DNA from: Candidatus Limimorpha sp.
GTDB taxonomy: Bacteria > Bacteroidota > Bacteroidia > Bacteroidales > F082
Assembly: GCA_045120395.1 (NCBI GenBank)
Contig: JBGVET010000026.1
Span: 5,691 to 69,690 of the forward strand
Direction of reading: 5' to 3'
Length of the DNA: 64,000 bases
Shown: piece by piece, positions 27,072 to 64,000 of the stretch
How the letters are laid out: the number at the start of each line of letters is the position of its first letter
How positions within the stretch are numbered: position 1 is the stretch's first letter
Position numbers and translations under genes: made by a program
Notes under the pieces: generated by a model
Seen by the model: only the letters and a program-made list of their open reading frames with translations
What the model was told of the DNA's origin: nothing
Database searches by the model: none

Positions 27072-27178
27072 TAGTTAAAGTTGTTTATGAATTATTTTGA
27101 TGGAATTAACTAACTCCTAACTCCTAACTAAAAAAAACTTATTGTCTTATAGTCTTGTGGTCTTGTTGACTTTTTTCT

Positions 27179-27186
27179 TATCTTTG
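27179..27186 (+). promoter_or_regulatory. candidate -7 box TATCTTTG for lysS
   Basis: TAnnTTTG match 36 nt upstream of ATG 27222. Confidence 0.4.
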
Positions 27187-27221
27187 CAAGTTTAATAGAA
27201 TTTAAGAAATATCAACATATT

Positions 27222-28943
27222 ATGTTAAGCGAACAAGAACAAATAAGAAGGAACTCATTAAACGAGTTATACAAATTAGGCATCAATCCTTATCCACAGG
27301 CAGCTTACGAAGTCAATGTCAACACAGCACAAATCGCTGAAGAATTTGATGACAACGACTTATCAAAATTCGAGAACGTAAGCATCGGCGGTCGTATCAT
27401 GAGCCGTCGTATCATGGGCGCAGCTTCATTCTGCGAGCTTCAAGACGCTCACGGCCGTGTACAGATTTACATCAAACGCGACGAAATCTGCCCTGGCGAA
27501 GATAAGACATTATACAACGTGGTTTTCAAACGTCTCCTCGACATCGGCGACTTCATCGGCGTTAAAGGTTTCGTCTTCCGTACACAAGCCGGAGAAGTAT
27601 CTATCCACGTAAAAGAATTGACAGTGCTCAGCAAGTCATTGCGTCCACTTCCTATCGTAAAAGAAAAAGACGGCGTCATCTACGATGCTTTCACCGACCC
27701 AGAACAACGCTATCGTATGCGTTACGTCGACTTAGTCGTTAATGAAAATGTGAAGAACATCTTCATCGCTCGTACTAAGATCATCAACTCAATGCGTAAC
27801 TTCTTCAACGAAAGCGGCTACCTCGAAGTAGAAACTCCAATCTTACAATCAATCCCTGGCGGTGCAACAGCACGTCCTTTCATCACACACCACAACGCTC
27901 TCGACATCCCTATGTACATGCGTATCGCTAACGAGCTTTACCTCAAACGTCTTATCGTTGGTGGCTTCGACGGCGTATATGAGTTCTCTCGTAACTTCCG
28001 CAACGAAGGTATGGACCGCACTCACAACCCTGAGTTCACATGTATGGAAATCTATGTCGCTTACAAAGACTACATCTGGATGATGGACTTCACAGAAAGA
28101 ATGATTGAACGCGTCGTGACAGAAGTGTTCGGCACCGACACAGTGAAAGTCGGCGACAACGAAATATGCTTCAAACGTCCTTTCAAACGCATCTCTATGA
28201 TCGACTCTATCAAAGAAAAGACAGGCATCGACATCACAGGCATGGACGAAGCACAACTCCGTGAAGTTTGTAAAAAGCTCGAAATCGAAATCGACGACAC
28301 AATGGGTAAAGGCAAACTCATCGACGAGATCTTCGGAGCAAAATGCGAAGGCACTTACATCCAACCTACTTTCATCACAGACTATCCAGTCGAGATGTCA
28401 CCATTATGTAAACGTCACCGCGAGAACCCAGAACTCACAGAACGTTTTGAGTTGATGGTAAACGGTAAGGAACTCGCTAACGCTTATACTGAGTTGAACG
28501 ACCCTATCGACCAACGCGCTCGTTTCGAAGAACAAATGAAACTCTCAGAACGCGGCGACAACGAAGCTATGTTCATCGACCAAGACTTCTTACGCGCTAT
28601 GGAATATGGTATGCCTCCAACATCAGGTATGGGCATCGGCATCGACCGTCTCGTGATGTTACTCACAGGTCAGCTCGCAATCCAAGAAGTTCTCTTCTTC
28701 CCAACAATGCGTCCTGAAAAAGTCAAGAAAGTAGCTACAGAACAAGACTTCATGGCTATCGGCGTTCCAGAAGTATGGGCTAAGGTCCTCATCAACGCAG
28801 GTTACACTGCAGTAGAAATGCTGAAAGCTGAGAAACCAGCAGCTCTTCGTGAGAAGTTGAACGGACTCCGTAAGAAAAACAAGATGGACGTCCCTGCACT
28901 TCAACTCGAAGAAGTAACACAATGGATTGAAAACAATGCATAA
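27222..28943 (+). CDS. lysS: lysine--tRNA ligase (class II)
   Basis: Full-length 573 aa; [58 protein letters not shown] class II motifs. Confidence 0.95.
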
Positions 28944-28980
28944 TTCATAATTTATAATGCATAATTAGGAATGAAGGAAG

Positions 28981-29016
28981 TCTAACTCCTAATTCCTAAC
29001 TCCTAACTCCTAACTG
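28981..29016. repeat. CTCCTAA heptamer tandem array
   Basis: TCTAACTCCTAATTCCTAACTCCTAACTCCTAACTG directly before holB ATG. Confidence 0.8.
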
Positions 29017-29019
29017 AAT

Positions 29020-61649: not shown

Positions 61650-61752
61650 TTCTGTCGTACCTTCGGCACTCTGATTAATATTCGGTCTTTATTGCAGGCA
61701 TTCCGAGCTACGCTCTCCATACCTGCCTGGGGACTGTCGTTCCTTCGGAATT
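61650..61752 (-). repeat. REP-like element downstream of RAYT gene (inverted relative to 61074-61178 and 44658-44757)
   Basis: CTGTCGTACCTTCGGCACTC...ATTGCAGGCATTCCGAGCTACGCTCTCCATACCTGCCTGGGGACTGTCGTTCCTTCGGAAT. Confidence 0.8.
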
Positions 61753-61770
61753 TCTATAGTATCCTATTAT

Positions 61771-61836
61771 TTTTATTGCAGGGGTTCCGTGCTTCGCACT
61801 TCACCGCCTGACTATATACTGACGCCCATACTGGGC
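61771..61836 (-). repeat. second, degenerate REP-like unit
   Basis: TTTATTGCAGGGGTTCCGTGCTTCGCACTTCACCGCCTG parallels the ATTGCAGGCATTCCGAGC...CCTGCCTG core. Confidence 0.5.
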
Positions 61837-61851
61837 TTTCTTATAACAAAA

Positions 61852-61888
61852 CAAAAATCGTCTCTGACATTTCAGAGACGATTTTTTG
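61852..61888. terminator. bidirectional terminator
   Basis: ATCGTCTCTGA (61857-61867) / TCAGAGACGAT (61872-61882), A-run before and T-run after. Confidence 0.65.
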
Positions 61889-61931
61889 TTTCGTAGTCTA
61901 AGTTCAAGGCTCACAGCCCATAGCTCAAGGC

Positions 61932-64000
61932 TTATTCGATAATAGTCAACTCATCAATAATATTATGTGCTTTACCGACTTTCTCGATGCACCATAAGAG
62001 GTAACGAGCATCCATGCAGATTGTGCGTTGTACCTTTTGTTCGAATGAGAGGTCTCCGCTCATAGCTTCCCAGTTGCCGTCGAAAGCGAGGCCGATGAGT
62101 TCGCCTTTGCCGTTGATGACAGGACTACCTGAGTTACCGCCAGTGATGTCGTTTGTTGTGATGAAGTTAACGATTAAATCGCCGTTTTCGTCCGCATAAC
62201 GACCATAATCTCTTGCTTCATATAAATCTCTAACGTCTTGAGGAATATCGAATTCCCAGTTGTTTGGTTTATATTTTGCCATCACGCCGTCCATTGTTGT
62301 GACGTAGTTGTAGTTGACAGCGTCAGCGCCTTTGTAAGGTTCAACGCTACCGTAAGTGAGTCGCATTGTGAAGTTAGCGTCTGGGTAGAAGTTACGTTCT
62401 GTCTGCATTTCCATCAAACCTTTAATGTAAAGACGTTCAGCTTCGTCACCTGAGTTAGCAGCTTCTAAATACATAGGAATGATGACATTATTATAGACAT
62501 CGATGATATTCATTGTCAAAGCGAAGATAGGGTCTTTGTCTAATTTCTTAGGTTTAGCAAGCCATTTCTCAACTTTTTCTTGACTTACGAAGATAGATTT
62601 TTCGAAAGCCTTTTCAACCCATGCTGTGAAGTCGCCGTTGTTTTTGTCACCGATTTCAGTAATCATTGTAGGAACATATCTGTCGATATCTTTGTAGATG
62701 AGGTTTAACAAAGCGATTGTCACGTCTTTATCCAAAGCCATGTCATAATCTTTAAAGAAAGGTTGAACTGTTGCGCTTAAAGCTTCCGCTGTTTTTGCGA
62801 TATCTTCTTTAGAAGCCTTGTTGTTCAACATATCGTTGATTGACTTAAATCTGCGTGAGAAAGAAATAGCTTCGCCGCCATTCCAGCCAGCTTCACGGAG
62901 ATAAATCATTGGCTTTTGGATGTCGTCCATAACATCCCATTTAGCGTCAACGTCTTCGAAGATTGTTCCATATTCTGCAATTCGATTTTCGTCAGCCTTA
63001 ACCCAAGCTCTGAATTCTTCTTCTTGAGCGTAACGTCTGTCATACACGCGGTTACGTTGTAATTGTTTCACCTGACCGATGAAATATTTCCAGTAGTTAG
63101 AAACGCTAGCTTGTTTTGAAGCGTATTTGATGAACACTTCTTGGTCAGCGTCCATATGTTTGCGATATTCGTTGAGTTTTGTTGTGCGGCAGTCGATGAT
63201 AGCTGGACCTTCTTCATTGATGATATTGCTGATAGTGCGGCTTGTTGAATAACGGTCGGTGCTGCCAGGATAACCCATAATCATTGCGTAGTCGCCTTGT
63301 TCTACGCCTTTAATATTAATAGGTAAGTAATGTTTAGATTTCATTGGGACGTTTTCTTCACTGTAAGCTGCTGGTTTGCCGTCAGGTGAAGTATAAACTC
63401 TGAAGATACAGAAGTCGCCTTTGTGACGAGGCCATGTCCAGTTGTCTGTGTCAGCGCCGTATTTACCGATGCCCCATGGAGGGCAAGCTGTGAGGCGAAC
63501 ATCATGATATACATCATATTCAAACATGATATATTGATTACCGTTATAGAAAGGAACGATTTCGATTCTTACGTCTCTGTCGCCTTTAACTTCTTCTTTT
63601 AAAGCTTTGATATTTTCATTGATGATTTCTTCGCGAGTTTCTTTTGTTGTTACGCCTTTAAGAACTGCTACTGTAACGTCTTCAACATTAGCGAGGAAAG
63701 AGACATAAAGACCTTCGCAAGAAAGTTCTTCTTTCATATCCAAAGCCCAGAAACCGTCTGTGAGGTAGTCGTGCTCTACAGATGCGAGTGCTTGAACATA
63801 ACCAAGACCGCAGTGATGGTTCGTGAGAAGCAATCCGTTAGGAGATATAAGTTCGCCAGTACAACCGTTAGCGAATTGAACGATAGCGTCTTTAACACTT
63901 GGCTGATTGAGGTCAAAAATCTGTTCTGCTGTGAGTTGGCAACCGAGTTGTTGCATCTCATAAAGACTTTGATTGCTTAAGTTGTAAGGTAACCACATAC
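61932..64000 (-). CDS. S46-family dipeptidyl-peptidase (DPP7/DPP11-like), N-terminus beyond window end
   Basis: GMWLPYNL-type start region, GCTGELISPNGLLLTNHHCG (His), ITGGNSGSPVINGKGELIGLAFDG (Ser); frame open to base 64000. Confidence 0.85.
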   Translation of the reverse strand, partial: MWLPYNLSNQSLYEMQQLGCQLTAEQIFDLNQPSVKDAIVQFANGCTGELISPNGLLLTNHHCGLGYVQALASVEHDYLTDGFWALDMKEELSCEGLYVSFLANVEDVTVAVLKGVTTKETREEIINENIKALKEEVKGDRDVRIEIVPFYNGNQYIMFEYDVYHDVRLTACPPWGIGKYGADTDNWTWPRHKGDFCIFRVYTSPDGKPAAYSEENVPMKSKHYLPINIKGVEQGDYAMIMGYPGSTDRYSTSRTISNIINEEGPAIIDCRTTKLNEYRKHMDADQEVFIKYASKQASVSNYWKYFIGQVKQLQRNRVYDRRYAQEEEFRAWVKADENRIAEYGTIFEDVDAKWDVMDDIQKPMIYLREAGWNGGEAISFSRRFKSINDMLNNKASKEDIAKTAEALSATVQPFFKDYDMALDKDVTIALLNLIYKDIDRYVPTMITEIGDKNNGDFTAWVEKAFEKSIFVSQEKVEKWLAKPKKLDKDPIFALTMNIIDVYNNVIIPMYLEAANSGDEAERLYIKGLMEMQTERNFYPDANFTMRLTYGSVEPYKGADAVNYNYVTTMDGVMAKYKPNNWEFDIPQDVRDLYEARDYGRYADENGDLIVNFITTNDITGGNSGSPVINGKGELIGLAFDGNWEAMSGDLSFEQKVQRTICMDARYLLWCIEKVGKAHNIIDELTIIE

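Follow-up and report, generated by a model that had tools for sequence, protein, structure and literature searches.

The window considered here is a stretch of 64,000 nucleotides (nt) from Candidatus Limimorpha sp. (contig JBGVET010000026.1, C26:5691-69690), and the elements of interest are arrays of 7- and 8-nt words, repeated head to tail, that lie in the spacers between its genes, among them lysS, an lnt-like gene and a GT9-like gene. An earlier note, made from the letters of this DNA, had listed such arrays between 27.1 and 62 kb. Tandem Repeats Finder (TRF) recovered all but three of them, only a few bases away from where they had been placed, so the listed arrays are real; the remaining three (51861-51895, 59690-59722 and 61895-61931) were too degenerate for the program, yet visible by eye in the sequence. 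Several units taken for 8- to 10-mers had been misjudged: AGTTCARAG, AATGCATAAT and AAGGCTAA are heptamers. The statement that nearly every spacer consists of these words was too strong: arrays were found in about 13 to 15 of the 25 spacers between 27 and 62 kb, and almost none in the low-GC block at 54.5 to 61.2 kb.

The first part of the array-bearing region runs from lysS to the GT9-like gene and beyond. Unless noted otherwise, its arrays were identified with TRF and in the sequence itself. Upstream of the lysS promoter lie two cassettes (27110-27164), namely 2.9 copies of CTAACTC (27110-27129 by TRF) and 3.4 copies of CTTATAGT-type octamers, the latter being the reverse complement of the AAGWCNNC family; an A8 run separates the two and a T6 run follows them. 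The lysS stop codon (28941-28943) is enclosed by 4.6 copies of the heptamer AATKCAT (28935-28966, plus strand), and 4.9 copies of CTAACTC (28982-29015, plus) end 4 nt before the ATG at 29020. An CTCAGAAA octamer array (30689-30719, plus; TRF and sister alignment) marks the break of the lnt-like gene. The stop codon of the open reading frame (ORF) 31705-32700 is again covered by 4.6 copies of AATKCAT (32685-32716, plus), and a hairpin of the dispersed family GTAGAGACGCGTCAATG...CATTGACGCGTCTC, similar to repetitive extragenic palindromic (REP) elements, separates this cassette (hairpin at 32727-32775) from 4.6 copies of AGTTCTT (32777-32808, plus) that end 5 nt before the ATG at 32814. The GT9-like ORF (32814-33947) contains 20 in-frame copies of the octamer AATCTCAG (33452-33611, plus), and its stop codon is held by 4.6 copies of AAAGGCT (33925-33956, plus). 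A copy of the Flavo-1 RNA motif with octamer-periodic flanks (34093-34167, minus), one of 26 in the genome, is followed by an octamer array joined to its own inverted copy (34177-34253, plus), for which a long A/U-rich hairpin is predicted (-18.1 kcal/mol, z = -2.7).

Farther on, 4.7 copies of AGTTAGG, holding the stop codon of ORF 36268-37281, are fused to nine copies of AGTTCAA (37269-37359, plus; TRF spans 37269-37301 and 37297-37359), and the composite ends 2 nt before the ATG at 37362. Within ORF 37694-39610, TRF indicated 4.6 copies of the octamer AACTCAGC (38888-38924, plus). The following spacer is a mosaic (39595-39841, plus) composed of an TTGAGGGT array over the stop codon, a small hairpin, an AGTTAGG array, Flavo-1 (39697-39780), an A-run and AAGACACC/AAGTCTCC octamers, with TRF spans at 39680-39699 and 39799-39841. 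Next come 4.6 copies of AAAGGCT, a hairpin of AAGTCACC-type words and, beside the stop codon of the minus-strand ORF 41486-44503, CAAAAGC/CAATAGCC arrays (41329-41492; TRF spans 41329-41360 and 41443-41492), while 3.7 copies of TAACTCC cover the stop codon of ORF 44808-46217 (minus) at 44802-44827. The remaining arrays are AGTCAAC/AGACAAC heptamers (4.6 copies, 46876-46907) beside a REP-like hairpin, TAAGTTAC octamers (4.8 copies) with CAACAGA heptamers (four copies) at 48785-48905 (TRF span 48878-48905), TAGAGTG heptamers (4.9 copies, 49735-49768) right after a Flavo-1-like copy, degenerate AAAGACT/TTAGTTC heptamers followed by 4.6 copies of AACTCCT (51861-51932, plus; only the second part, 51901-51932, by TRF), AATTAAC heptamers (4.7 copies, 53037-53069) after a REP-like hairpin, and ATTATGC heptamers (3.4 copies, 53347-53370), which belong to the AATKCAT family in the opposite orientation.

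The analysis was then extended to the whole genome, a metagenome-assembled genome (MAG) of 2.36 Mb in 53 contigs (97% complete, 0.1% contamination). Its LysS shares 97-100% identity with MAGs that are labelled Bacteroidales or Lentimicrobiaceae and come from buffalo caecum and similar sources, which places the organism among uncultured gut or rumen Bacteroidales. With a TRF score of at least 30, it yielded 858 rows of period 7 and 790 of period 8, compared with 80 and 73 in the same genome shuffled in 200-nt blocks, where almost all rows were shorter than 25 nt. The intergenic excess was confined to periods 7 and 8 and their multiples. The earlier note had named a lack of intergenic enrichment of these periods over a shuffled control as grounds for refutation; the genome-wide comparison clearly shows the opposite, and we agree with the note that such a density implies an active generating process. 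After merging, the set comprised 1,597 arrays and 50.9 kb in total. Of all non-coding bases they occupied 13.3%, compared with 0.63% of those in coding sequence, a 21-fold contrast that rests on crude gene calls (ORFs of at least 80 amino acids starting with ATG). The autocorrelation of bases in spacers had its peaks at lags of 7 and 8 nt and further, harmonic ones at 14, 16, 21, 24 and 32, compared with period 3 alone in coding DNA.

The arrays are distributed unevenly with respect to genes. An array is present at the 3′ end of 39% of genes, and 276 arrays overlap or abut a stop codon, with the sharpest peak at the stop codon itself and a broad distribution of distances to start codons. This bears out the earlier observation that arrays begin at or just inside stop codons; the accompanying claim that they run up to the next start holds at some operon junctions and not elsewhere. 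Occupancy was highest in convergent spacers (about 38% of bases in those of 40-129 nt), followed by codirectional spacers (about 20% in those of 80-249 nt), and lowest in divergent ones (3-10%). Coverage of spacers also followed flanking GC content: it was 0.5-2.6% where GC was below 0.34 and reached 15-16.5% where GC was 0.38-0.42. Within the window, there were 0.4 arrays per 10 kb in the island at 1-27 kb, 9.1 in the core at 27-54.5 kb and 1.5 in the low-GC block at 54.5-61.2 kb; the near-absence of arrays from the island explains why the pattern had been noticed only after 27.1 kb. Both low-GC blocks (1-27000 and 54500-61200, GC 0.29-0.36), almost without arrays, are probably acquired DNA; in the second lie five small paralogous genes, which encode products beginning with MKKT. 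The scarcity of arrays in such DNA fits their build-up over time in the resident chromosome, and array density looks usable as a marker for recently acquired DNA.

Copy number per array had a median of 4.1 and a maximum of 27 (TRF), and the vocabulary amounted to 149 heptamer and 183 octamer word classes, dominated by the families AGTTAGG/CCTAACT, AATKCAT, AAAGNCT, AACAGNC, AAGWCNNC and CTCAGAAA. The commonest words are A/T-rich and free of G-runs (AACTCCT, AATTATG, AACAGAC, AAACTCAG and others), and in AAGWCNNC units some positions are conserved and others free. Array lengths did not form a falling tail; heptamer arrays had a mode at 31-33 nt and octamer arrays one at 35-36 nt, i.e., four units plus a partial one. 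Counts made with regular expressions, independently of TRF, gave 67, 55, 140, 22 and 5 AAGWCNNC arrays of two, three, four, five and six units, respectively, and 4.3-4.7 copies recurred in loci of unrelated array-rich Bacteroidales with other words. The families are also oriented. After stop codons, the two orientations occurred in ratios of 44:6 for AGGAGTT, 33:3 for CATAATT, 15:1 for AATCTCAG and 11:0 for AAATTCAG, and before start codons in ratios of 23:2 for GTCTGTT and 10:0 for AGTCTTT. An inverted copy within 100 nt accompanied about 14-19% of arrays, compared with 2-5% in a reverse-only control, and inverted pairs directly 3′ of stop codons are predicted to form long A/U-rich hairpins followed by T-runs.

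Two exact but internally imperfect 31-mers, AGTTAGGAGTTAGGAATTAGGAGTTAGGAGT and AATTCATAATTCATAATGCATAATTCATAAT, were each found at 13 loci. The sequences on either side, among them gene ends, T-runs, other arrays and hairpins, are unrelated. Since independent slippage could not have produced an identical internal variant unit at many loci, whole cassettes must have been copied or homogenized between loci. Many cassettes are edged by A- or T-runs; in alignments with relatives, they showed neither terminal inverted repeats nor target-site duplications.

The arrays share the spacers with other dispersed elements. The 26 copies of Flavo-1, located in the window at 34093-34167 (minus), 39697-39780 (plus) and about 49640-49720 (plus), are almost always followed by an A-run and an array and often preceded by a module gccctgaaagggcg...ggcaacgccttatt with an AGTTAGG array; some have a small hairpin inserted within the motif. 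Two families of REP-like hairpins, GTAGAGACGCGTCAATG...CATTGACGCGTCTC and CGGTGCCTGAGCCTGTCGAAGG...CTTCGACAAGCTCAGCGACCG, each have about 40 or more copies, with members in the window at 32727-32775, 33975-34030, 46920-46970 and 52985-53035, and in sister species such hairpins were found inserted in arrays. That arrays are appendages of these elements was rejected as the general case, because 184 of 1120 intergenic arrays adjoin a REP-like hairpin or Flavo-1 and 936 do not. Two further elements of the window deserve mention. A motif of about 90-120 nt ending in CCGAAGGTRCGACAG recurs at 44620-44745 (plus), 61000-61092 (plus) and 61652-61800 (minus), with four matches against zero expected; it had no Rfam match at E ≤ 0.1 and may represent a structured RNA or a leader that is as yet undescribed. 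A weak match to 5S rRNA (48975-49069, minus; 41.4 bits at a gathering score of 38) lies isolated in an array-filled spacer with no 23S gene nearby within the window.

Arrays are not confined to spacers. We counted 282 arrays that lie within ORFs, 45 nt or more from their ends; 167 of these arrays have at least 3.5 copies. In-ORF arrays translate into repeat peptides, e.g., SQNLRISE or QQPTANS. The lnt-like gene (30153-31741) is split here into ORFs of 189 and 318 amino acids exactly at its octamer array. Two sister species, G179 and G174, have two more units (16 nt) in this array, and their gene is a single ORF of 534 and 543 amino acids, respectively. The split form could represent a pseudogene or a gene in its phase-off state, or the assembly could have picked up a minority variant. 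In the GT9-like gene, the array of 20 units corresponds to about six units in the relative L081, to 7-mer and 8-mer arrays in L087 and to none in L082-L084. Outside the window, the linker of polA downstream of the 5′-nuclease domain carries 15.6 heptamer units encoding QQPIANS-type repeats (C46:72911-73019). In at least eight paralogous genes, likewise outside the window (C12:51329, 53498, 57802, 62327 and 64484; C47:14568; C49:99886 and 101640), the apparent C-terminal sorting domain of the type IX secretion system (T9SS) contains a perfect (CTCAGAAA)x4 that encodes LRNSETQKLRNS in frame. This cassette is identical at the equivalent place in all paralogues while the flanking codons differ, a pattern that points to gene conversion or to selection for the reading frame.

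Such in-gene arrays recall contingency loci, which classically consist of 1-5-nt units in a few surface genes. The lnt-like gene shows the same combination of an in-gene tract, a unit number that differs between relatives and a resulting change of frame (by 16 nt), and the GT9-like array, with 20, about 6 or 0 units in relatives, varies as contingency loci do. Unlike those, however, the in-gene arrays described here are a by-product of a genome-wide process. That process is not targeted to spacers, as the in-ORF arrays, the polA linker and the split lnt-like gene demonstrate; it gives rise to repeat-peptide linkers, and changes in unit number frameshift genes.

Sister species were aligned spacer by spacer in syntenic DNA (G179, 92-94% identity; G174 and G177, 86-88%; G202, about 84%). 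Upstream of the lysS promoter, at the place of 27110-27164, five species, four of them sister species, have arrays that differ in words and even in periods. The cassette at 28935-28966 is kept in the relatives L001, L002 and L010 as well as in G179 and G174, with individual units changed, and that at 28982-29015 has the same unit count in G179 and G174, with variant units at other positions. Spacer 32701-32813 is common to L081 and L087 (about 90% identity), L081 having one AATKCAT unit fewer, and in relatives at 73-80% identity this whole 113-nt spacer is gone, replaced by one of 20-40 nt without arrays or hairpin. In G179, the cassette at 32685-32716 is duplicated around an inserted hairpin element. 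The length of spacer 37282-37361 is constant, while G174, G177 and G202 have other array families there and G179 an inserted hairpin element. Similarly, the spacer at 36207-36267 (about 60 nt) has kept its length with unrelated content across the sister species. Small hairpins occupy it in the present genome and in G174, whereas G179 and G202 have heptamer arrays there and G177 has an array hairpin. Of the larger mosaics, that at 39611-39949 is present in G174 and absent from G179 and G202, and that at 33948-34410 is present in some sister species and absent from others. Within the genus, array density ranged from 0 to 5.3 per 10 kb in 20-kb samples per relative (shuffled baseline about 0.65), and samples of the same size identified a few unrelated Bacteroidales as array-rich, too. 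A vocabulary shared across Bacteroidales was rejected, since the strict pattern AAGWCNNC x4, with 39 matches in this genome, had no match in 150 genomes from 148 other genera; by this sequence comparison, the array words are lineage-specific. A look-up of identical proteins, intended for a comparison of strains, had no match on record.

A role in transcription termination, suggested in the earlier note, was assessed by scanning 1123 gene 3′ regions in coarse steps for a hairpin followed by a T-tract. Terminators were predicted in 504 regions, 89 with stems made of arrays, 47 mixed and 368 of ordinary sequence, so that arrays serve as predicted terminator stems in about 8-12% of gene 3′ regions. 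An array lay between stop codon and hairpin in 93 of the 368 ordinary predicted terminators, with a median stop-to-hairpin distance of 44 nt compared with 22 nt where there was none, and 285 regions contained arrays and no predicted terminator. Given that array stems account for 89 (plus 47 mixed) of the 1123 regions, termination is at most a minority, co-opted use. A minority of arrays has probably been co-opted in this way, either as inverted pairs forming predicted A/U-rich terminator hairpins or as spacers between stop codon and terminator.

Several other explanations of the arrays were examined and set aside. In gene 3′ regions, they accounted for 46% of all bases and for 47% of those predicted to be paired, i.e., they were neither enriched nor depleted, and these two values do not support the idea of unstructured linkers. 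Rho-utilization-like C-rich tracts were rejected because the sense strand of post-stop arrays is rich in A and has more G than C. A three-frame safety net of stop codons was likewise rejected as a general rule, as AATCTCAG, AAACTCAG and AAGACTAC have no stop codon in the sense orientation, yet are preferred after stop codons. Among possible causes, loss of flap processing and loss of mismatch repair were both discarded, since the PolA 5′-3′ exonuclease domain is intact in the present genome and in 38 of 41 relatives, and MutS1 is full-length in 41 of 41 genomes. The obvious repair defects are thereby excluded.

Knowledge of simple repeats of the heptamer type in bacteria dates back to 1990, when Mazel et al. 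reportedly described the short tandemly repeated repetitive (STRR) sequences of cyanobacteria, i.e., tandem intergenic heptamers with several word families per genome. Just one word found here matches an STRR unit: AACAGTC (26 arrays) is a rotation of CAACAGT, the reported STRR3 unit. STRR belong to heterocystous cyanobacteria and comprise the units STRR1-3, whereas the present arrays come from a member of Bacteroidales, with octamers as frequent as heptamers and a much larger vocabulary, and so are not STRR in the strict sense. The arrays are not clustered regularly interspaced short palindromic repeats (CRISPR) either, since their 7-8-nt units are contiguous, without the unique spacers that separate CRISPR repeats of 28-37 nt. 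The earlier note was also right that they are not classical REP: REP and bacterial interspersed mosaic elements (BIME) consist of imperfect palindromic units of about 35 nt, whereas the arrays are direct tandem repeats, with an inverted partner nearby in 14-19% of cases. What they have in common with enterobacterial REP/BIME is that the spacers are mosaics of small dispersed modules, with separate REP-like hairpins and Flavo-1 interleaved among the arrays.

The note erred, however, in not recognizing the arrays as a described repeat class, as heptamer-dominated long simple-sequence repeats (LSSRs), STRR, the heptamers of Xanthomonas and Nostoc, and TAACTGA repeats had already been published (PMC4679880, PMC4692102). 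LSSRs (Mrazek, Guo and Shah 2007), as summarized in PMC4679880, have 5-11-nt units, prominently heptamers, and a phylogenetically sporadic occurrence; by the same summary, they are overrepresented relative to composition, mostly non-coding if the unit is not a multiple of 3, and proposed to originate by slippage. The arrays described here share the head-to-tail units of 5-11 nt (periods 7 and 8), the excess over what composition predicts (858/790 against 80/73) and the mainly non-coding location of units that are not multiples of 3 (13.3% against 0.63%, with the crude gene calls). Compared with LSSRs as that summary presents them, they differ in that 7-mers and 8-mers are equally frequent, in the number of arrays and words (about 1,600 and more than 300, in few families), in the size peak at about 4.5 units and in the copying of whole cassettes between loci. 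Rehm et al. (2015) described G-rich heptamers, GGGAATC in Xanthomonas and GGGGAYT in Nostoc PCC 7120, with about 90-190 arrays per genome, which are 89-93% intergenic, nearer to the end of the upstream ORF and absent from plasmids, and which vary in length and sequence, yet stay in position, from one close species to another, some forming inverted pairs (PMC4692102). Our arrays resemble these in being about 90% intergenic, in lying near the 3′ end of the upstream ORF, in their inverted pairs and in their kept positions; the absence from plasmids there has a counterpart in the near-absence from acquired islands here. In contrast to the single quadruplex-capable G-rich word of Xanthomonas and Nostoc, there are many A/T-rich words here without runs of three or more G, and array density per megabase is roughly 20-fold higher. 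TAACTGA repeats, which occur in two to six copies in intergenic DNA of marine Beggiatoaceae, cyanobacteria and five Bacteroidetes, are a single word located just upstream of start codons and oriented relative to the neighboring gene, and other heptamer repeats are found in Gramella and Aequorivita spacers (MacGregor 2015, PMC4679880). The present arrays are likewise intergenic heptamer direct repeats with an orientation relative to the neighboring gene; however, they peak at stop codons rather than starts, and TAACTGA is outside their 40 commonest units. The arrays are thus a very dense, many-word example of long-known heptamer repeats, and their behavior is that of cassettes of about four and a half units with a fast turnover rather than that of plain copying debris.

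These findings led us to favor, with a probability of about one half, the view that the arrays are STRR-like members of the LSSR class with 5-11-nt units, amplified to an extreme in a single clade within a genus of uncultured gut and rumen Bacteroidales and made and reshuffled by an endogenous process at the DNA level. Slipped-strand mispairing would add or remove units of 7 or 8 nt, ectopic recombination through short homology, or a switch of template from one array to another of its family, would copy cassettes of about 4.5 units elsewhere and homogenize them, and selection would then act as a filter, leaving cassettes where they do little harm. Tolerated sites would be mainly just 3′ of stop codons and at operon junctions, rarely promoters, and within genes only those where the array is in frame and in a stop-free orientation. 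This account matches the published behavior of the Xanthomonas and Nostoc heptamers (PMC4692102) and of the LSSR class (PMC4679880).

Several observations nevertheless weigh against it: (i) copy number peaks at four units plus a partial one for both periods, while plain slippage predicts a monotonic fall; (ii) a strand-symmetric DNA process does not predict a family-specific orientation relative to the gene; (iii) unit count is often kept in the sister alignments while variant units are shifted, which suggests a constraint on size; (iv) the words inserted in the GT9-like gene are unlike the local sequence of the array-free relatives, so that seeding was not a simple local duplication; and (v) no replication or repair lesion was found among the functions examined (PolA 5′-nuclease domain and MutS1). 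The size peak, the family orientation and the kept unit count are left unexplained by slippage and reshuffling, and they keep alive the readings in which the cassettes are functional modules or products of a dedicated mechanism.

The first of these readings, which we consider doubtful, holds that the cassettes are selected, largely sequence-independent periodic modules of about 32-36 nt in 3′ untranslated regions and operon junctions, for which slippage only supplies variation. As RNA or single-stranded DNA, they would be read by a protein, one 7-8-nt word per domain or subunit (e.g., S1-type or cold-shock-type oligonucleotide-binding folds), and they would set the spacing from the stop codon to the terminator or to the next start. 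Selected modules would account for the size peak, seen with both periods here and in unrelated array-rich genomes, for the family-specific orientation relative to transcription, for arrays that begin exactly at stop codons, for unit count and spacer length kept across species while words change, and for the conserved and free positions of AAGWCNNC units; binding of S1, Csp or CsrA had been proposed by MacGregor for TAACTGA (PMC4679880). However, the modules are dispensable, since relatives at 73-80% identity have array-free junctions of 20-40 nt and some members of the genus are almost without arrays. Furthermore, acquired islands work without them, identical cassettes also lie inside coding sequence, bases predicted to be paired show neither an excess nor a deficit of arrays, and we have no binding factor to name. 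We give similarly low credence to a bolder reading, according to which the arrays are not slippage debris; each would be a discrete cassette with five cores of 3-4 nt at even distances, made, copied to new sites and kept in size by some mechanism and read strand-specifically at gene ends. If this were true, the preference for 7-8 nt would be explained by a protein or polymerase with a 7-8-nt step, and the answer would be findable from array-rich and array-poor species of this genus.

It is unlikely that a dedicated enzyme makes or inserts the cassettes, be it a polymerase or reverse transcriptase reiterating a short template (telomerase-like or end-joining-like) or the nuclease or transposase of an element that moves cassettes of about 32-36 nt. 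The exact imperfect cassettes at 13 loci with unrelated flanks, the quantized cassette size, the foreign words in the GT9-like gene, the sporadic distribution within genus and order and the A- and T-runs that bound many cassettes would all suit such an enzyme. On the other hand, there is no candidate gene to name, the alignments revealed neither terminal inverted repeats nor target-site duplications, more than 300 words would require many templates, and the unit-by-unit differences of close species look like slippage.

We regard it as improbable, to a still greater degree, that the arrays are mainly transcription terminators or insulators. Their concentration at gene 3′ ends and in convergent spacers, together with inverted pairs that form stable predicted hairpins followed by T-runs, speaks for such a function; however, array stems were predicted in just 89 (plus 47 mixed) of the 1123 regions, compared with 368 regions with ordinary, non-array terminators and 285 with arrays and no predicted terminator, and an inverted partner lies within 100 nt of no more than about 14-19% of arrays. 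An origin of the arrays in low-complexity sequence that arose by chance or in an artefact of assembly, to which the 53 contigs of the MAG might point, is effectively refuted by the tenfold excess over the shuffled genome specific to periods 7 and 8, by arrays shorter than one read and by the same arrays at orthologous sites in independently assembled MAGs of sister species from other studies.

What makes bacterial heptamer repeats, why their unit is about 7 nt and whether they have any role are long-standing questions, for which the lineage described here is an unusually strong natural system. Since its genus spans array-rich to almost array-free members, the factor that generates or maintains the arrays should be findable by comparative genomics, and function is testable with reporters in cultivable Bacteroides. 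The arrays also inflate spacers, break genes in MAG annotations and create repeat-peptide linkers, and they may find use as markers of horizontally acquired DNA and as loci for strain typing.

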